Positions 5,106 to 20,436 of a stretch of 64,000 nucleotides of DNA are shown piece after piece. The translations under genes were made by a program, and so were the position numbers. Every line of letters begins with the position of its first letter. Position 1 is the stretch's first letter. This DNA comes from a phage. A model generated the notes under the pieces. It searched no databases. It was not told the origin of the DNA and worked only from the letters and a program-made list of their open reading frames with translations. The stretch is from sequence record OZ346212.1; one strand, 5' to 3'.

Positions 5106-5134
5106 TTGACAACAGTCATAGGGCCTACTATAAT
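5106..5134 (+). promoter_or_regulatory. sigma70-type promoter (TTGACA-17-TATAAT)
   Basis: Perfect -35 and -10 hexamers with 17-nt spacer upstream of gene 5166. Confidence 0.6.
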
Positions 5135-5165
5135 GGCCCTATCAAAACGAAAGGGGACCACAGCA

Positions 5166-13123: not shown

Positions 13124-13309
13124 ATGAAAACCACTACCTTTAATTTTGATAATGCAGACTTTTCTTTTTCTGATGTCAAGAACTGCCGCCGTGATCGTGG
13201 ATTTTACAAGGCTTATAATCTGGTGGGCCTGGACGATGACAATAATTTGCACGAAGTAGCTGAGATCCAGCTTGACAGATTGGACGGGAAAGTACTAAAA
13301 ACTTATTGA
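13124..13309 (+). CDS. hypothetical protein (61 aa)
   Basis: SD AAGAGGA then ATG. Confidence 0.55.
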   Translation: MKTTTFNFDNADFSFSDVKNCRRDRGFYKAYNLVGLDDDNNLHEVAEIQLDRLDGKVLKTY

Positions 13310-13310
13310 G

Positions 13311-13357
13311 TTTATTTTTAGATGGCCTTGACACCAGGGCCATCAATAAAGTAAACT
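13311..13357 (+). repeat. intergenic palindromic element, copy 1 (GATGGCC-TTGACACCA-GGCCATC)
   Basis: TTATTTTTAGATGGCCTTGACACCAGGGCCATCAATAAAGTAAAC; near-identical copies at 13933 and 17650, degenerate copy at 14266. Confidence 0.7.
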
Positions 13358-13509: not shown

Positions 13510-13537
13510 TTGACAAGCTAACTTAAATCGATATAAT
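13510..13537 (+). promoter_or_regulatory. sigma70-type promoter (TTGACA-16-TATAAT)
   Basis: Consensus hexamers about 79 nt upstream of ATG 13589. Confidence 0.6.
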
Positions 13538-13588
13538 AAGCACATAAACGGGAAAACTTCCCAGAACACACAAAAGGAGAAAAACACC

Positions 13589-13930
13589 ATGACTACTATG
13601 ACCGCCTCAGAAAAAGCTATGCAGATCGCTGAACTGAAAAAACAGATCGCAGACCTTGAGAATAAGATCGATAACTTTGAAATCGACGAGGACAAGTACG
13701 ACGAAAACTATGATGAATGGTTAGACGAGATCTACGGCGAAATTATGATCGGAAACATTTCTTTTCTTCCGTCGCGTATCCTCAAGGAGCTAGATCCTAT
13801 CGCTTACCGCTGCGGATTTAGCGACTACATCGACAGCCTGGATATTGAGGACGATGAAGAATACCAGGAATTACAGACAGAGTTAGAAGAAGCAAAAGAA
13901 GAGCTTGCGGAGCTGGAAGAAAACGAGTAA
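13589..13930 (+). CDS. hypothetical acidic coiled-coil protein (113 aa)
   Basis: SD AAGGAGA; D/E-rich with heptad-like N-terminus. Confidence 0.55.
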   Translation: MTTMTASEKAMQIAELKKQIADLENKIDNFEIDEDKYDENYDEWLDEIYGEIMIGNISFLPSRILKELDPIAYRCGFSDYIDSLDIEDDEEYQELQTELEEAKEELAELEENE

Positions 13931-13932
13931 GC

Positions 13933-13978
13933 TTATTTTTAGATGGCCTTGACACCAGGGCCATCAATAAAGTAAACT
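13933..13978 (+). repeat. intergenic palindromic element, copy 2
   Basis: Identical core to copy 1, directly after stop of 13589-13930. Confidence 0.7.
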
Positions 13979-14019
13979 TTATACTGTTAACACTGAACTA
14001 ATGCATAGGAGTTAAAACC

Positions 14020-14265
14020 ATGGCAGCACTAATCACCAAATATTATGCCCCTACCAACACCAAAAGCGCCCGTATCATGGTAAAAGGCTTCGGACGTAAA
14101 AAGGTGTACACCTGGGATTATGCCTTAGACACGGAAGACAACTACACCAACGCAATGACCGATTTTATTAATGAACTAAATAAGCAGATCTTGACAAGTT
14201 ATAAAGTGACCGATATTGCTTATATAGGTGAAGGCGGGATCTGTTTTGTAGGCATTGTGAAATAG
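14020..14265 (+). CDS. hypothetical protein (81 aa)
   Basis: SD TAGGAG then ATG. Confidence 0.55.
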   Translation: MAALITKYYAPTNTKSARIMVKGFGRKKVYTWDYALDTEDNYTNAMTDFINELNKQILTSYKVTDIAYIGEGGICFVGIVK

Positions 14266-14339
14266 TTATTTTTTCGGTGGTCCTGGTTGCAGGGCCATCT
14301 ATAAAGATAATTTATTAACACCATGAAAGGAGAAAGTAC

Positions 14340-14693
14340 ATGATCAGCGGGGCAAGTTTTATTATTGGCGCTATTGCTACGGCTTTAATTGTAAATAAGA
14401 TCCAGGATAAAAAGGAAAGAGGAAGTACCGCCCTTGCAGAATATCCATTTTGGGCATTCAACGATAACGAAGATTATATTATAAAGTATAAAAATAAAGA
14501 AGGTGACCAAGTAACACCGCGACCGATCCCGGCTTACAAAATGCAGGAAACACTATACCGCCTGGAGGCGGGTGGCGCAAAAATTGTAGACTTTTGGGGA
14601 TACGACCACACAGATCAGGAAGTTATAAAGCGCCGTATCCGGGCTATTCAGGCCAATATTGAAGTTAGCAAGGGGGGAATATATGAAAATTAA
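14340..14693 (+). CDS. hypothetical protein with N-terminal transmembrane segment
   Basis: SD AAAGGAGAAAG; hydrophobic N-terminus SFIIGAIATALIV. Confidence 0.55.
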   Translation: MISGASFIIGAIATALIVNKIQDKKERGSTALAEYPFWAFNDNEDYIIKYKNKEGDQVTPRPIPAYKMQETLYRLEAGGAKIVDFWGYDHTDQEVIKRRIRAIQANIEVSKGGIYEN

Positions 14694-14880
14694 TTTCGAG
14701 AAAATTGTAAAGCGCCCTCATGATTCCGAAGAGCTGCCAGAACGCCGCCAGCGTAACAATAAACTGAATAAGCCAAAAAGGTTTGGGAAGATCTGGCGTA
14801 ATCATTATGATCGTAAATTGCCCGGCCTACTTTTGGAACGTGAACGACAGGCAGAACGATACCGCCATAAAGACAAATAA
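14683..14880 (+). CDS. hypothetical basic protein
   Basis: Internal ATG 14683 after AAGGGGGG; R/K-rich. Confidence 0.45.
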   Translation: MKINFEKIVKRPHDSEELPERRQRNNKLNKPKRFGKIWRNHYDRKLPGLLLERERQAERYRHKDK

Positions 14881-14888
14881 CAACCAAC

Positions 14889-14917
14889 GCCCCGCCATTG
14901 TGCGGGGCTTTTTATTT
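14889..14917 (+). terminator. rho-independent terminator
   Basis: GCCCCGC-cattgt-GCGGGGC followed by TTTTTATTT. Confidence 0.7.
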
Positions 14918-15037
14918 CTATCCTACGAATAGCGCCCCTGGTTGGCCCTGTAAGCGCCAAAAAGGCCCCCACCTATGCAATCGCCCCTTTAACCTGAAAA
15001 CATCGCCCAGGGCCGTTTCATGGCGTTAAAAATATCA

Positions 15038-15065
15038 TTGACATCGTCAACAGGTTAGCTATACT
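15038..15065 (+). promoter_or_regulatory. sigma70-type promoter (TTGACA-16-TATACT)
   Basis: Hexamers 60 nt upstream of ATG 15098. Confidence 0.6.
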
Positions 15066-15097
15066 AACCACATCAAAGAGAGAAAGGAGTAAACGCC

Positions 15098-15358
15098 ATG
15101 CGTAAATTAAAAAATTTTGATAAAGTTGATGTTATCCTGAATAATTTTTACTACTGCAACAACAAGGCTATTTGGTGGCGTGATAGTTCCACCGATAAAG
15201 TCAGGGCGCGCTTTCTTCAGGGGCACTGGCAAGGCCGCCCAGTGATTAAAATCATGGGGCAATCGGTAGCGTTTAAAAATTGCCGCCGTGTTGATGACGT
15301 TGAGGAGATTTTAAACATTTTGCGCCACAATAATTTAAAAAATAGTGTTGACAAGTAA
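15098..15358 (+). CDS. hypothetical protein (86 aa)
   Basis: SD AAAGGAG then ATG. Confidence 0.55.
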   Translation: MRKLKNFDKVDVILNNFYYCNNKAIWWRDSSTDKVRARFLQGHWQGRPVIKIMGQSVAFKNCRRVDDVEEILNILRHNNLKNSVDK

Positions 15359-15375
15359 GCCTCAATAAGTATACT
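15348..15375 (+). promoter_or_regulatory. sigma70-type promoter (TTGACA-16-TATACT)
   Basis: Overlaps last codons of upstream gene; followed by leader hairpin GGCGGGAA-aac-TTCCCGCC. Confidence 0.6.
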
Positions 15376-15432
15376 TAAACACACAGGCGGGAAAACTTCC
15401 CGCCACTAACAAAGAAAATAGGAGAAAATATC

Positions 15433-16056
15433 ATGACCACCGTTAACATTACCGCAGGTTACAATTTATCTTTCGACGTGCTGACCGACGAACAAAAAGA
15501 AAAAGCCGTTGAAATGGTCCGCGAAAGAGAAGAACACAGCGGGGATAACTTTTTTGCAGAAAGTGTAATTGAATACTATAAAGAATATGTTTTTCCAGAG
15601 TATGGCCTTGAAGATACCGAAGTACATTGGTCAGGCTTTTGGTGCCAGGGTGACGGCGCGTCAATCAGTGCTGAAAACGTGGATTTAGAAAAATTTTTAC
15701 GTAAAGTAAAGGCCCTGACCAAGTTCCGATCAATTCGTCACTTGTTCGGCACAATGCACGATGGCGAGTTATCAGCCAGTGTTGAACGCGACAAGTACAG
15801 CCATTACAGCCATGAAAACACTGTAAGCGGGTACATTGATACCACTTGGCTAGATCTGACCGCCAAACAAGAAAACAAAGTGGAAGACCTGGAAGAACTG
15901 ATCACCGAGACGGTACGGGAGCTATCCCGCAAGGTTTACGTAGACCTGGAGGAGGCCTATCTAGAACAGTTCACCGCAGAAAACCTGATCGGCCTTATCG
16001 AGGCCAATGATTGGCGGTTTGATGTCGATGAATATGGTGAGATGACTTTTTCATAA
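15433..16056 (+). CDS. hypothetical acidic protein (207 aa)
   Basis: SD TAGGAGA; strongly D/E-rich. Confidence 0.6.
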   Translation: MTTVNITAGYNLSFDVLTDEQKEKAVEMVREREEHSGDNFFAESVIEYYKEYVFPEYGLEDTEVHWSGFWCQGDGASISAENVDLEKFLRKVKALTKFRSIRHLFGTMHDGELSASVERDKYSHYSHENTVSGYIDTTWLDLTAKQENKVEDLEELITETVRELSRKVYVDLEEAYLEQFTAENLIGLIEANDWRFDVDEYGEMTFS

Positions 16057-16146
16057 ATAAAGTGTTGCAATAACCTAAAAACCTGCTATATTAAAACTCA
16101 AGGGGGCAAGACGTTTGCCCCAACACAAAACAAAGAGGATAACATC

Positions 16147-16527
16147 ATGAAAAACACTACCAAGGCTATTGACACCGTTATGTTTAACCTGGTTACATTC
16201 CGTGAAGATATGAAAGATCTTCCTCGTGAAACAGTGTGCGACCATATCGAAAACTATCGCAAACTAATCAAAGAGTTGCCTTTAAAACGTGATCAATATG
16301 CGGCTAACGCCATGCTTAATGCCATGATCAAAAAGATGATCCAGTGTGATTTAACCCTGGCCTATGATTATGCAGGCGGTCGTTTTGCAGTATACAATCA
16401 GCCCGTGCCCGGTATGAGCACCACCGAAGAATTGCACGCGCTCAATCTAAAACAAGACGTGTGGGATAGTATGCCTCGCGTGGTGGTATGGGTAGAAAGC
16501 GGAAAGATTTACGGCGATAATTTTTAA
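16147..16527 (+). CDS. hypothetical protein (126 aa)
   Basis: SD AAGAGGA then ATG. Confidence 0.55.
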   Translation: MKNTTKAIDTVMFNLVTFREDMKDLPRETVCDHIENYRKLIKELPLKRDQYAANAMLNAMIKKMIQCDLTLAYDYAGGRFAVYNQPVPGMSTTEELHALNLKQDVWDSMPRVVVWVESGKIYGDNF

Positions 16528-16536
16528 TCAGGTAGC

Positions 16537-16563
16537 AGGCGGCATATTTGCCGCCTTATTGTT
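16537..16563 (+). terminator. rho-independent terminator
   Basis: AGGCGGCA-tatt-TGCCGCCT followed by TATTGTT. Confidence 0.6.
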
Positions 16564-16591
16564 AATCAGAACTGTAAAAGAGGTACATAGA

Positions 16592-16963
16592 ATGGAATTT
16601 ATTATTTTGGCTGTATTGGTTGCCTTGTTTAACGCCTGGATCGCTGGCAAGATGGGAAGATCCGCCTTTTTATGGTTTATTATATCTATTTTCCTGGGGG
16701 TGGTTGCAACTATTGTATTGGTTATCCTTGCAATTGTTGACAAGGGGAATAATAGAAAGGGTAAAGTATTTTCAGACCTGTACGACGCTCAAACGTTTGT
16801 CAACGCCTATTATAGTGATCTTCCAGTCTCCCTACGTTGCAGCCTTGCACAACAGGTTTTCGATGAAGCTAAAACCAGAGATCACGCCCATGAGATTTGT
16901 TTAACTGAGGCGGATCGCCTATTTGAGAGGAATAGAAAATATGTGGACCAGCCGTTTAAATAA
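16592..16963 (+). CDS. hypothetical membrane protein (two predicted TM helices)
   Basis: ATG 16592 after AAAGAGG; IILAVLVALFNAWIAG and FLWFIISIFLGVVATIVLVILAIV hydrophobic stretches. Confidence 0.55.
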   Translation: MEFIILAVLVALFNAWIAGKMGRSAFLWFIISIFLGVVATIVLVILAIVDKGNNRKGKVFSDLYDAQTFVNAYYSDLPVSLRCSLAQQVFDEAKTRDHAHEICLTEADRLFERNRKYVDQPFK

Positions 16964-17306
16964 TGCCACGTTAATTAACCCCTTTAGTAAAGATTTGAAG
17001 CCAGCCGCCTGGCGGGATGGATTCAATAACGAACGCTTTATTTTCAGGCCTGATCTTGAGGAATTTTATAACAATGGATCGAACAACAGCGGAGATAATT
17101 TTTCTTGTGGTGTGTGTCGTGATAGGACTCCTGGGGGCCATTGTAGATCGCGTCACTACTACCAGAAGGAAAGGGGGAGACGATGACAACCAAGGATAAG
17201 CCCCGCACCGATAAGGTGCGCCGTGTTATGGTATGGCTTGAGATCATCGCCCTTGAAATATTGTTAGGCGTAGGGATGTATTTTATCTCTGTAAGTAACT
17301 GATAAC

Positions 17307-17338
17307 GGCCCCCGATCCCTGGGGGGCCTAACTTTTTT
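17307..17338 (+). terminator. rho-independent terminator
   Basis: GGCCCCC-gatccct-GGGGGGCC followed by TAACTTTTTTC. Confidence 0.65.
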
Positions 17339-17445
17339 CAAAAAATTTTTCTTCCGGGGTGTTGCAATCCGGTCCTGAATATGGATAATAACAATCAACG
17401 GGGAAACATCCCCACCAACACAAAAACCAGAAAGGAGAAACAAAA

Positions 17446-17646
17446 ATGAGCAACAATATCCGCGTTATTAACTTCAAAAAAGAAGAAAAAATTGCCGTGC
17501 TGATTGACGGTCAAGAAATCTTCAAGGGCGACTATGAAGATCATCAAACGGCGATTAGTATCACTCGCGTGATTGGTTACCATAATTTTTACCCCCAAGG
17601 CGCTGAGGCGGCGGTTAAACGAATCAAAGAGATTGTAGGCCTGTAA
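17446..17646 (+). CDS. hypothetical protein (66 aa)
   Basis: TTGCAA/GATAAT promoter, leader hairpin, SD AAAGGAGA. Confidence 0.55.
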   Translation: MSNNIRVINFKKEEKIAVLIDGQEIFKGDYEDHQTAISITRVIGYHNFYPQGAEAAVKRIKEIVGL

Positions 17647-17649
17647 AAT

Positions 17650-17695
17650 TTATTTTTAGATGGCCTTGACTCTAGGGCCATCAATAAAGTAAATT
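17650..17695 (+). repeat. intergenic palindromic element, copy 3 (TTGACT variant)
   Basis: TTATTTTTAGATGGCCTTGACTCTAGGGCCATCAATAAAGTAAAT. Confidence 0.7.
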
Positions 17696-17739
17696 TAAAC
17701 CCTGTTAAAATACCACGCAGTTAACAAGGAGTAATGATC

Positions 17740-18039
17740 ATGTTTATCCAGGCTAATAATCTTTATTTCTTTGATGGTCAGATCGTAGATGGTGTGGAAG
17801 TGGAGATCACTGGGTGCCCTGGTGGTCAGGCTATGACTTTTCGGAATAATGCCTTTGATGATTCTCATATCGTTATGAGAATGGAAGTTACAAAGCTGGA
17901 CGACAAGAAAACGCTCATTGACTATTCCGTGAAAGATCATCCAGACTACCACATGATCTATGGTGATTTGTGCATTGTTGACCGTGACAAGGTGGGCGGC
18001 ATTGTGATCGCTATTGTGAACGATGTTTTCTCTGTATAG
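17740..18039 (+). CDS. hypothetical protein
   Basis: Second ATG (17740) has better spacing from SD AAGGAG than track start 17734. Confidence 0.55.
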   Translation: MFIQANNLYFFDGQIVDGVEVEITGCPGGQAMTFRNNAFDDSHIVMRMEVTKLDDKKTLIDYSVKDHPDYHMIYGDLCIVDRDKVGGIVIAIVNDVFSV

Positions 18040-18097
18040 TTCCGGCAAATGATGCAAAATAAGGCCCCTAGCAGGGCCTACAGCGATATAATCACAT

Positions 18098-18130
18098 AAA
18101 GGCCATGCAACCGCATGGCCTTTATTATTT
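18098..18130 (+). terminator. rho-independent terminator
   Basis: AAGGCCATGC-aacc-GCATGGCCTT followed by TATTATTTT. Confidence 0.7.
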
Positions 18131-18217
18131 TGGCGTTACAGCGGCCCCAAGGCGCTTAAAAATTTTTTAAAGAAGTACTTGCATCAAGCCCTACAATATG
18201 GATAATAGGACGTGTCA

Positions 18218-18231
18218 GGGGGGGGGGGGGG
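18218..18231 (+). repeat. homopolymeric G tract (14 nt) in a 5' leader
   Basis: G14 between the TTGCAT/GATAAT promoter and the SD of gene 18271. Confidence 0.8.
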
Positions 18232-18270
18232 AGGCCCCAATCATTAACCGGATAGATAGGAGTTAAAACC

Positions 18271-18555
18271 ATGGCTATTGTTACCGCTGGCGATGTAGTA
18301 GAAATGGAAGCAAAATACTTAAAAGCGGGTATGCATATCCTACGCAACGATCTTGAACTGGTCCTGACAATGGTTGACTATAACCCAGGGCAAGATTATC
18401 CAAGTGTTGACTACTTTTTTGAGTATGTTGATGAAGAGTTGAAAGAGGATGAGGCCTATTGCGGTGAGTTCTGCAACTTCTTTTGTCCTGATGAGGTTGT
18501 AAAGGTTATCTATCAACCTGGCGTAGCTTTCCCGCTGCACGCTATCAATAAATAA
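18271..18555 (+). CDS. hypothetical protein (94 aa)
   Basis: SD TAGGAG then ATG. Confidence 0.55.
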   Translation: MAIVTAGDVVEMEAKYLKAGMHILRNDLELVLTMVDYNPGQDYPSVDYFFEYVDEELKEDEAYCGEFCNFFCPDEVVKVIYQPGVAFPLHAINK

Positions 18556-18559
18556 ACCT

Positions 18560-18590
18560 GGCGGGGCCGAAAAGGCCCCCGCCTGAAATT
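18560..18590 (+). terminator. terminator-like hairpin
   Basis: GGCGGGGCC-gaaaa-GGCCCCCGCC directly after stop; weak U-tract. Confidence 0.45.
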
Positions 18591-18617
18591 ATGAAAAATA
18601 AAAAGAGGCAAACTATC

Positions 18618-18851
18618 ATGATGGAACAAATTAAACGCGCTGAGGCTATTAATGGCAATGTAATCTATTTTGTCAGCAAAAACGAAAAAGGCGTACCCTA
18701 TGCGGCGGTAATAGTACAGCCTGACGGCGATTATTGGTGCACTGTGTACGGCGCTTATTCTTTTGGGCGTCCAGTGCATGATAAAATTTTGAAAGTAGCG
18801 AACCCTACCGGGAAAAATATTACAGCAGAAAAATTTTTTGAAAAAAGTTGA
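18618..18851 (+). CDS. hypothetical protein
   Basis: ATG 18618 after AAGAGG; track ORF starts 18591. Confidence 0.5.
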   Translation: MMEQIKRAEAINGNVIYFVSKNEKGVPYAAVIVQPDGDYWCTVYGAYSFGRPVHDKILKVANPTGKNITAEKFFEKS

Positions 18852-18927
18852 CATGACCATATAAAACTGTAGTATATAAATCAAAGGGGGCAACAAGCCC
18901 CACCAACCACAAAGAGGATAAAAAATC

Positions 18928-19107
18928 ATGGCTATTATTGCAAAGACCGAGATCGTAGGCTTAGATTCTATTCTCCTCGCATATGAGGAAGCTATAGAAA
19001 TGTATGTGGTTTCCTATGGTGAGTATATCCGTGAATATGAATCTATTGATCTAGCTTTTGAATGTTATATTCGCCAGGTTAATAAAGCGTACGATGATTA
19101 TCGTTAA
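18928..19107 (+). CDS. hypothetical small protein (59 aa)
   Basis: TTGACA promoter, leader hairpin, SD AAGAGGA, ATG 18928; just below track size cut-off. Confidence 0.45.
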   Translation: MAIIAKTEIVGLDSILLAYEEAIEMYVVSYGEYIREYESIDLAFECYIRQVNKAYDDYR

Positions 19108-19198
19108 AATAGTTTGACAACAAACAACCATCTAACAAAGCATAATACATAAGGTGGTAGAATGATCCGCCACCCGGAACAAAGAAGAGGTAAACACC

Positions 19199-19444
19199 AT
19201 GAAAAGCAATAAAGGTTATAACGGTTACAAAAACAAAACTCATTGGAATGTAAGCCTTTGGATTAATAACGATGAGTCATTGTACCGGTTGGCCCAAGGA
19301 TTTATTAACGCTAATGCTAATCGTAATGATGCGGCGCGGGATATGATGCTTTTTCTGGAGCTAACCGGACAAGATAAGACCCCGGACGGCTTCAAGTACA
19401 GCACTACGGCGATCCGTGCCGCGATGGTTGGAATGAAACACTAA
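19199..19444 (+). CDS. hypothetical protein (81 aa)
   Basis: TTGACA promoter at about 19117, SD AAGAGG. Confidence 0.55.
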   Translation: MKSNKGYNGYKNKTHWNVSLWINNDESLYRLAQGFINANANRNDAARDMMLFLELTGQDKTPDGFKYSTTAIRAAMVGMKH

Positions 19445-20436
19445 AAGCACATAGCCGCCAGATCTCAGAATTTACGTACGCTCACCAGTCTATAGCCTGC
19501 TAAGTATTTATTCCAACCATAGAATAACGGAATAGTCAATACCTGCATAAAATAATTATTCGTGTAAACTGCATAACATAAATCGGCTAGGATGTCAACA
19601 TTTTTCGTAAACAGCTCGAAATTATAACGGTGAGTTATAATAAACAGAGAAATCTTTAGTCGTCTAATGTTTACTGTACATTACTATACTGACTGGAATC
19701 ATTAGATGACTAAGAGAAAGATAAGAAATCATTAACAATGCAATTGTTTTATTCGTAACAATAAGGCAACTATGCAAACGGATGGCATGGCGCGACGGAG
19801 TCGCGACATAATATAAAAGCAGTAACCATCACCCCCGTGATAGTTTGTCTGCAAACTATTAATCAGATCATAGTTGCCTTGTATTTAGTTAATCATGACA
19901 TAACAAGCAAGGCAACTATAGATCTGCTAATAGTTGCCCTGCTTTTATATTATGTCATAGATTATTAGCCTGTTAATTGTTAGTCAGTCAAATCAACAAC
20001 GTTATCATTTCAGTCTTTATTGTTGTTGATCGTTATTGTTATCATGCAAACGAATGGCATGGCTTATCATTTTTGAGTAAACAATCTATACGTGAACAGT
20101 GAGGCAAGTTAGCAGCCGATAGATTAGATATTAACCTGCAGACTTCTGACCGTCTAGACGTCTAAACGCCCACACAACAAGGATTATACATACAATACTG
20201 AATGTAAACAGGGCCGCAAAAATGCTACCATACCACAGATTGTAAATTTTTCATGCAGCACTTGACAAAGAGGAGAACTTAATTTTATCAGGATAGGCAA
20301 GAATGTCAAGGCATGACTGCTCACTAAACAAGCAAACAGTCATGTGTGGGAGGTAAGTGATTGTGGTGGTAGGAAATTTAGTTGAAAGATGTGTTATAGG
20401 TGCTTCCAGCACTTTAGCCGGGCAGCTAATTGTGTG
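19445..20436. other. convergent-transcription junction, AT-rich with hairpins and direct repeats
   Basis: No ORF; palindromes ATAGTTGCCTTG...CAAGGCAACTAT, CGCGAC-gga-GTCGCG, ATAGTTTG-tctg-CAAACTAT; direct repeat ATGCAAACG(G/A)ATGGCATGGC twice. Confidence 0.5.

Follow-up and report, generated by a model that had tools for sequence, protein, structure and literature searches.

Promoter-proximal GC hairpins before small genes of an rV5-like phage: a recurrent cassette that may protect early messages from 5'-end-dependent decay

Our analysis of a 64,000-nucleotide stretch of phage DNA (sequence record OZ346212.1, hereafter the window), which belongs to an rV5-like Vequintavirus, revealed that six of its genes (13589, 15433, 16147, 17446, 18928 and 19199) and a degenerate seventh (18271) share one upstream design: a sigma-70 promoter, a short GC hairpin, a leader and a Shine-Dalgarno (SD) sequence (Table 1). 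A first-pass annotation had described a hairpin just past the -10 element of these six genes, and reading of the sequence, a perfect-stem search and folding of each leader found every one of them at its place. The observation is thus confirmed and is far more general than first stated, and the main strength of the case lies in its recurrence, since other phages yielded 77 unique modules built in this way. The anatomy of the cassette, its conservation at the RNA level, the lack of terminator tails and its presence in three phage groups are direct observations. The most economical reading of the hairpin is that it protects the messages against decay initiated at the 5' end, a role that is plausible if unproven. 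The genes are called early on account of their consensus sigma-70 promoters and their small ORFan products.

The promoters at five of the six sites match TTGACA-16/17-TATAAT at 9-12 of 12 positions, with a complete match at gene 13589, and are preceded by AT-rich DNA; the hairpin follows the -10 after a gap of 6-12 nt. At gene 19199 the 21-nt spacer (19120-19140) results from a 4-nt insertion relative to phage AlexBoehm (ACAAACAACC versus ACAGCC), in which the orthologous cassette has a 17-nt spacer and a GGCGG...CCGCC stem, and this promoter is probably weakened in the present phage. Within 12.7-19.3 kb, five GC hairpins start 6-14 nt past a promoter-like -10 (0.75 expected, P = 8e-4), an enrichment that is weak when the entire window is considered (8 versus 4.2 expected, P = 0.06). 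The minimum free energy (MFE) z-scores of the leaders against dinucleotide shuffles range from -1.9 to -5.7 and are individually modest, and folding of the 18271 leader in the window gave no significant fold. The 14-G run in the latter module corresponds to 4-5 G in relatives; either the homopolymer has truly expanded and thereby destroyed the local hairpin, or the run is an error of assembly or sequencing.

Table 1. Promoter-hairpin modules of the window and other hairpins of the same region and of position 5106-5142. All coordinates refer to the window; dG, folding free energy; z, MFE z-score; tail, predicted unpaired nucleotides at the 5' end.
Feature	Span	Strand	-35	-10	Spacer (nt)	Gap -10 to hairpin (nt)	Hairpin	dG	z	Leader and SD	Tail (nt)
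Module of gene 13589	13510-13588	+	TTGACA 13510-13515	TATAAT 13532-13537	16	12	GGGAA-aac-TTCCC 13550-13562	-5.5	-2.3	13563-13588, U-free	~6
Module of gene 15433	15348-15432	+	TTGACA 15348-15353	TATACT 15370-15375	16	10	GGCGGGAA-aac-TTCCCGCC 15386-15404	-14.6	-5.7	15405-15432	3-5
Module of gene 16147	16065-16146	+	TTGCAA 16065-16070 (-35-like)	TATATT 16087-16092 (TG-extended)	16	10	GGGGCAA-gacgt-TTGCCCC 16103-16121	-12.5	-3.0	16122-16146	2-3
Module of gene 17446	17362-17445	+	TTGCAA 17362-17367 (-35-like)	GATAAT 17384-17389	16	10	GGGGA-aaca-TCCCC 17400-17413	-8.7		17414-17445, U-free	3
Degenerate module of gene 18271	18179-18270	+	TTGCAT 18179-18184	GATAAT 18201-18206			14-G run 18218-18231, then aGG-CCCC to 18238				
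Module of gene 18928	18848-18927	+	TTGACA 18848-18853	TAGTAT 18870-18875	16	11	GGGGC-aacaa-GCCCC 18887-18901	-10.5	-2.4	18902-18927	3-4
Module of gene 19199	19114-19198	+	TTGACA 19114-19119	CATAAT 19141-19146	21	6	GGTGG-12 nt-CCACC 19153-19174; alternative pairing GGUGG/CCGCC	-10.7	-1.9	19175-19198	0-1
49-nt repeat with -35-embedding hairpin (family D1, 4 copies, 71-98% identity)	13309-13357; 13930-13978; 14264-14312; 17647-17695	+	TTGACA	TAAACT	18		TTATTTTTA GATGGCC ttgacaccag GGCCATC AATAAAGTAAACT; -35 in the loop				
Promoter with 12/12 consensus	5106-5142	+	TTGACA	TATAAT	17		ATAGGGCC-tactataat-GGCCCTAT, 8 bp; -10 in the loop				
Promoter-less intercistronic GC hairpin	16537-16556	+					AGGCGGCA-tatt-TGCCGCCT				
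Promoter-less intercistronic GC hairpin	18560-18583	+					GGCGGGGCC-gaaaa-GGCCCCCGCC				

The leaders behind the hairpins had been described as A/C-rich. Their composition (A 0.60, C 0.20, G 0.15, T 0.056) bears out the abundance of A, and they are better called A-rich and U-depleted (P = 7e-11 for the depletion of T), with G nearly limited to the SD. Leaders of promoters without a hairpin are likewise purine- and A-rich. The hairpin-bearing leaders measure 51-57 nt, as opposed to about 32 nt for the hairpin-less promoters of the same region (13124, 13390, 15098), so that the hairpin resembles an inserted module. Three of the leaders (13537, 15376, 17387) form a 38-nt repeat family with 63-76% identity, so that common descent accounts for part of the shared architecture.

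The position of the hairpin appears to be set by the promoter. Over the 77 unique modules the distance between -10 and hairpin is 9-15 nt, with modes at 10 and 12, and the distance from hairpin to ATG varies loosely from 11 to 38 nt; the hairpin is therefore anchored to the promoter or start site and not to the ribosome-binding site. Downstream of the -10 a consensus was found with C at position 7 (58 of 77), A at position 8 (62 of 77) and T at position 9. C7-A8 provides Y(-1) and R(+1) at the usual starting distance of E. coli polymerase, and the sequence predicts that the hairpins lie downstream of the start, with +1 at the conserved A of C-A-T. The unpaired 5' tails predicted on this basis amount to 0-6 nt in the window (Table 1), 5-7 nt in phage BF17 and 3-7 nt over all modules.

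The recurrence of the module was established by a uniform scan that required a promoter with at least 9 of 12 consensus matches, an ungapped stem with equal penalty for all mismatch types, no T-tract, and an SD and ATG downstream. It returned 95 instances of the 77 unique hairpins, combining promoter, hairpin and strong SD, in Vequintavirus, in the phi92/ZYD/phAPEC8/ZCKP1 group (Stephanstirmvirinae) and in Asteriusvirus-like phages, including the 383-kb jumbo phage BF17 and related IMG/VR contigs; scans of IMG/VR recovered few relatives. Genes of AlexBoehm that are missing from the window also bear such hairpins (GGCGGGAA-tgt-TTCCCGCC, GGGCA-aagg-TGCCC and GGGCC-ggga-GGCCC). Stems and loops of the phi92-like and BF17-like modules are fairly uniform (GGCGGGAA-TGG/TAG-TTCCCGCC and GGGGAGAA-TAG/ATGA-TTCTCCCC). 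Several ORFan genes of 15463-19439 are, together with their modules, common to phi92/phAPEC8-like phages and to jumbo phages of 350-380 kb (BF17, UB) at 70-80% DNA identity, which indicates that early-gene cassettes have probably been exchanged horizontally between unrelated coliphages.

Comparison of the modules argues for selection on the RNA structure. A whole-module MAFFT alignment was out of structural register, hence covariation was assessed in a fixed-length subset, a gap-free alignment of 31 triloop modules. In this alignment 94.4% of cells are paired, a percentage that is circular because the modules were picked for having hairpins. Partner specificity is not circular: the 5' arm is complementary to its own 3' arm at 5.79 of 6 positions, versus 4.19 +/- 0.09 for permuted arms. 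Seven of the eight pairs are altered on both sides (38 cells), and the covariation score of 0.495 exceeds that of shuffles (0.160 +/- 0.022; 0 of 500) and of slid registers (0.06-0.13). Among non-Watson-Crick stem positions, G·T and T·G together were counted 21 times and A·C and C·A 6 times under the equal mismatch penalties, an excess that fits a structure of the sense strand. GC pairs are oriented with G in the 5' arm and C in the 3' arm rather than the reverse in a ratio of 338 to 64.

Orthologous cassettes of eight Vequintavirus genomes gave a similar picture. Changes per column were 0 in the -35, 0.13 in the -10 and 0.17-0.23 in the stem arms, with 0.40 in the loops, 0.37 in the leaders and 0.16 in coding sequence, so that loops and leaders are about twice as variable as the stem arms. 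The hairpin of gene 13589 is kept in 7 relatives and takes the form GGGA-gtaca-TCCC in one lineage. The ortholog of the 15433 stem in L004, GGTGGGAA-caa-TTCCCGCC, combines a U·G wobble with a changed loop, and the lengths of G-run and C-run vary among orthologs of the 16147 hairpin. At gene 17446 the loop is exchanged (aaca, gctaa or gaca), the stem is extended to 6 bp in L013 (GGGGAG-aca-CTCCCC) and the outer pair is G·U in L011. The degenerate module of gene 18271 appears in relatives as GGGGG-agg-CCCCC, GGGG-cgg-CCCC or GGAGG-tgatg-CCTCC, the last being a compensatory replacement of G-C by A-U. Covariation, the excess of G·U and loops more variable than stems argue for selection on sense-strand RNA structure. 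They point to a hairpin that would work as RNA and not as DNA, through its structure and not its sequence; it is the sense-strand structure rather than the sequence that is conserved, as in hairpins of the 5'-stabiliser type.

Under the reading that we favour, the cassette would be read by the host sigma-70 RNA polymerase and would serve as a compact expression unit for one early gene. Transcription would start at the conserved A of C-A-T, 6-8 nt past the -10. About 0-6 nt into the mRNA its first structured element would begin, a stem-loop of 5-9 bp with a G-rich and a C-rich arm; behind it would come the leader, A-rich, poor in U and free of structure, and then a strong SD. Decay that depends on the 5' end runs through RppH and RNase E (PMC9943677). 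The hairpin may limit the access of RppH and of the 5' sensor of RNase E to the end of the message, while the U-poor leader would offer few RNase E sites and the strong SD would keep ribosomes loaded. On read-through from an upstream promoter the same hairpin might cap the 3' side of the preceding cistron, and the two roles could coexist. Both the start site and the effect on stability are what we infer, and we hold this account of the whole cassette, with longer-lived early messages as the job of the hairpin, tentatively and with slightly less than even confidence.

A number of observations weigh against protection of the 5' end. A 5' hairpin is reportedly protective only with no more than about 2-4 unpaired nucleotides in front of it (Emory et al., 1992), and RppH is said to require at least 2-3 unpaired nucleotides (Foley et al., 2015). 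With a start at A6 or A8, many modules would have an unpaired tail of 3-7 nt (gene 13589, up to 6 nt), at or beyond the edge of the protective range. The first-pass interpretation is thus partly supported, in that the hairpins behave as selected sense-strand structures downstream of the predicted start. In 73 of 87 modules no more than 20 nt separate the -35 from the upstream stop codon, behind which there is no other hairpin. The promoter-less intercistronic hairpins and those embedding a -35, with their sense-strand wobbles, fit a role for the upstream cistron equally well. Promoters 13124 and 15098 of the same region are equally strong and have no hairpin. Close relatives carry disruptive variants, namely G·A (in L003, at the 15433 stem), A·C (in one relative, at the 18928 stem), U·C and a deletion in phage Gotham that takes out the 5' arm of the 18928 hairpin; single hairpins are therefore dispensable or weakly constrained, as is any one pair. 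The excess of G·U could come in part from a C-to-T bias of the non-template strand. A literature search found no map of transcription start sites, half-life data or prior description for rV5, phi92 or RaK2-like phages, the phi92 and FV3 genome papers being outside the search. Internal orthogonal stem-loops are readily bypassed by scanning RNase E (PMC9943677).

The main rival, by analogy with what has been proposed for the PeSL stem-loops of T4-like phages, is that the hairpin serves the upstream gene, either as a 3' cap that keeps out PNPase and RNase II once the RNA has been processed or by weakly attenuating read-through; its place past the next -10 would then reflect packing in short intergenic regions, inherited by cassette duplication. 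Besides the closeness to upstream stop codons, this is favoured by the finding that 13 of about 15 genes in 13.1-19.4 kb have one GC hairpin within about 50 nt behind them, be it after a promoter, around a -35 or promoter-less. Hairpins 16537 and 18560 have no promoter, and hairpins therefore follow most genes here regardless of promoter. The 14264-14312 copy of the 49-nt repeat has diverged and keeps its pairing through two wobble pairs (G·U and U·G), although this class II copy lies outside the transcript of its own promoter. The exact stem GGCGGGAA-NNN-TTCCCGCC of gene 15433 was found at 116 IMG/VR sites, and a T-tract follows at 74 of them, hence the stem type is generic and terminator-like. 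Only a handful of the 116 sites, in large coliphage contigs, are promoter-proximal, and the scan for this stem mainly yielded terminators of unrelated phages. A PeSL stem-loop was moreover shown to cut downstream lacZ as strongly as rrnB T1 (PMC2839356).

The spacing of the modules does not suit a service to the upstream gene, since it is tight to the -10 and loose to the stop codon or the ATG. The hairpin is also retained in about 11 of the 95 instances despite an upstream terminator or the lack of an upstream open reading frame (ORF). It is present after a true terminator at gene 17446 (terminator 17307-17328), at AlexBoehm 5643 and at phi92 46470, and without an upstream ORF at BF17 1757 and other sites. 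Intrinsic termination is unlikely because the six hairpins lack a U-tract and their leaders are depleted of U. A terminator scan called none of the six on the plus strand; it called 13550-13563, 15386-15404, 16103-16121 and 18887-18901, as well as 17394-17419, which contains the 17400-17413 stem, on the minus strand only and with weak tails, and the minus strand is empty at the hairpin sites of the window. An intrinsic terminator of the sense strand was thus rejected, the T fraction of the leaders being 0.056. We regard a role for the upstream gene as rather unlikely, albeit clearly ahead of the explanations that follow.

According to a second alternative, the repeats would act at the DNA level, as PeSL-type mobile cassettes that provide homology for recombination by which ORFan genes are inserted, deleted or swapped. 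The ORFan array of the window does differ from its relatives by gene-sized indels, the cassettes form repeat families, and genes with their modules are shared with phi92-like and jumbo phages as described above; RB49/phi1 are known to have PeSLs with G_N-loop-C_N stems, some of which form a subclass located downstream of the -10 (PMC2839356). Segments of about 0.7 kb, 0.36 kb and 3.1 kb (ten small genes) that AlexBoehm possesses are missing from the window at 13262-13268, 18032-18052 and 19451-19459, respectively. All three breakpoints are microhomologies of 7-9 nt inside or after genes and outside the hairpin modules, the outer two being GAGATCC and ATAGCYGCC, which speaks against recombination between cassettes, although three events are weak evidence. 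The stems diverge by compensation while the promoters stay alike, the opposite of what selection for homology predicts, and the bias towards G·U over A·C marks a strand-specific structure. We consider such a DNA-level role improbable.

There is similarly little to be said for the hairpin as a recognition site, whether the operator of a phage repressor, an antitermination signal of the boxB or put kind, or the target of a translational repressor or nuclease. Its place at about +1 to +25 is classical for an operator and is shared by nut- and put-type elements, and the uniformity of the phi92-like and BF17-like stems and loops could be read in the same way. The six window stems (GGGAA, GGCGGGAA, GGGGCAA, GGGGA, GGGGC, GGTGG) and their loops (aac, gacgt, aaca, aacaa) have, however, no common sequence, loops change freely between orthologs, and neither a boxA-like partner nor an Rfam family match was found. 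In a covariance-model scan of 12-20.5 kb against Rfam, the only hit was a sub-threshold chance match to RF03091 (30 bits versus 94 needed, E = 0.71). Individual candidates were rejected for similar reasons: a repressor operator in view of six different stems in the window and a strand-asymmetric mismatch spectrum; a lambda-type nut, as the loops (aac, gacgt, aaca, aacaa or 12 nt) vary between orthologs and have no Rfam match; an N4-type promoter hairpin, given variable stems and loops and a consensus sigma-70 promoter upstream of each; and an RNase III site, for which the stems are too short.

We are equally sceptical that the hairpins have no current function and are remnants of terminators or palindromes hitch-hiking on duplicated promoter cassettes. 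Stems of terminator type, mismatches or loss tolerated in some relatives and promoters without a hairpin are in line with this; it does not fit hairpins that covary in three phage groups, keep their distance to the -10 and have stems that change less than loops or leaders do. A more far-reaching variant of 5' protection, to which we give only slight credence, is that the cassette is mobile and exchanged among the unrelated Vequintavirinae, Stephanstirmvirinae and Asteriusvirus, and that the hairpin labels phage early mRNA as resistant to a phage-imposed decay of host mRNA, a structural mark of self and non-self; if true, it would be more than a generic stabiliser during host takeover. T4 Srd activates RNase E. 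The gp11 protein of rV5 has been called an Srd homolog (PMC3606486), and a link to it found no support: gp11 has no Pfam match and its gene lies outside the window. A tblastn search with this Srd-like protein returned homologs in Vequintavirinae and some other phages, with no phi92-like or Asteriusvirus phage among the matches listed.

The surroundings of the modules are those of a variable gene array. The region of 13.0-19.8 kb is about 95% identical to AlexBoehm/Bas56, Murica and rV5 and was matched by 282 phage records in a sequence search, and all annotated relatives show it as a one-strand array of small hypothetical genes. A Pfam scan left nine of ten downstream or neighbouring proteins without a family above threshold; the exception is the product of gene 19199, which belongs with DUF7249, a family whose function is unknown. 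In the genome paper of rV5, 33 sigma-70-type promoters and 20 terminators are listed and promoter-proximal stem-loops go unmentioned (PMC3606486). Twenty-three GenBank records titled 'Campylobacter phage', with C. jejuni as host, are about 95% identical to the E. coli rV5-like sequence of the window, and their naming or host looks doubtful.

Other arrangements of hairpins were also noted in the window. The 49-nt repeat is annotated as a terminator in phage Murica, yet it has no U-tract. On the minus strand, an 11/12 promoter (TTGACT-17-TATAAT; 43673-43620) has only 2 nt behind it a hairpin of 9 bp, TGGCTCACT-ttgtt-GGTGAGCCA, which would span the start site, a geometry unlike that of the early-gene modules. 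At 22044-21981, also on the minus strand, a weak promoter-like site precedes AGAGGGGGGC-ttgg-GCCCCTCTTT and an SD-ATG; this may be a further minus-strand module or a bidirectional terminator. Between the plus-strand array and minus-strand genes lies a repeat-dense non-coding stretch of about 900 bp (19450-20350) with copies of AAGGCAACTAT/ATAGTTGCC in both orientations, an 18-nt perfect inverted repeat (19805-19822/19939-19956) and a 20-nt direct repeat (19772/20044). A regulatory region of some kind, such as an origin or a packaging signal, may be located here.

Should the hairpins prove to stabilise early messages, large virulent coliphages would obtain a burst of host-takeover proteins with the host polymerase alone. 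The modules would also constitute a natural library of about 80 covarying promoter, 5'-hairpin and leader parts for the tuning of mRNA stability in E. coli.

The closest known system is that of the PeSL cassettes of the T4-like phages RB49/phi1, PST and nt-1 (Arbiol et al. 2010, PMC2839356; Comeau et al. 2014, PMC4122927). These place a G_N-loop-C_N stem-loop and a consensus early promoter before ORFans and fall into five positional subclasses, among them a rare one 'downstream of the -10' (PMC2839356), the position of the window modules; terminator or attenuator and recombination roles were proposed by their authors (PMC2839356; PMC4122927). The window cassettes resemble them in the sigma-70 early promoter, the AT-rich upstream DNA, the adjacent G_N-loop-C_N stem-loop, the SD and ATG, and the repetition before small ORFans in variable regions. 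A strong promoter at five of the six sites, an adjacent stable stem-loop and an association with ORFans in a hyperplastic region, all defining features of PeSLs, were found in the window. The 13309 family corresponds to the PeSL subclass 'around the -35', and the hairpin at 5118 to that 'around the -10'. The differences concern position and hosts. In RB49, where this was checked, stem-loops mostly lie between -35 and -10 or over the -10 and are absent from the local transcript, whereas the dominant class in the window and in the phi92-like and Asteriusvirus phages occupies about +4 to +25, inside the transcript and with a fixed spacing to the -10. The phages that carry the cassettes are unrelated (Vequintavirinae, Stephanstirmvirinae and jumbo phages), the window hairpins have no U-tract, and the three indels examined lie away from the cassettes, so that no recombination between cassettes was seen in these three events.

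Among 5'-terminal stabilisers, the hp1 hairpin of the ompA 5' untranslated region and the T7 phi10 leader GGGAGACCACAACGGUUUCCC are the established examples, the former reportedly described by Emory, Bouvet and Belasco in 1992. The window cassettes resemble both in a short GC stem-loop close to the 5' end (the predicted one in the window), in the unstructured leader and strong SD behind it and in a hairpin that would act by structure and not by sequence, and T7 phi10 also in the G-rich 5' arm and C-rich 3' arm. The hairpins of ompA and T7 phi10 start within 0-2 nt of a 5' end that has been mapped, and their effects on half-life have been measured, whereas the 5' end in the window is predicted and the tail is maybe 3-7 nt. 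Intrinsic terminators have the same type of stem, and the exact 15433 stem belongs to terminators in many other phages; the window hairpins differ from them in having no 3' U-tract on either strand, in being followed by 8-10 A/C-rich nucleotides and in standing after a promoter and not at the end of a gene. The boxB of lambda nut and HK022 put are likewise small RNA hairpins transcribed soon after an early promoter, but in boxB a GNRA-like pentaloop is conserved and a boxA accompanies it, in contrast to the freely varying loops and stems of the window, and put consists of two hairpins in about 70 nt. In the window, nearly every gene has its own promoter. The window cassettes are thus rated as a variant of a PeSL-like cassette or of a 5' stabiliser hairpin. 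With them the PeSL idea reaches beyond T4-like phages into three further groups, with the stem-loop inside the transcript, a position that makes PeSL function testable as a matter of a 5' versus a 3' role.

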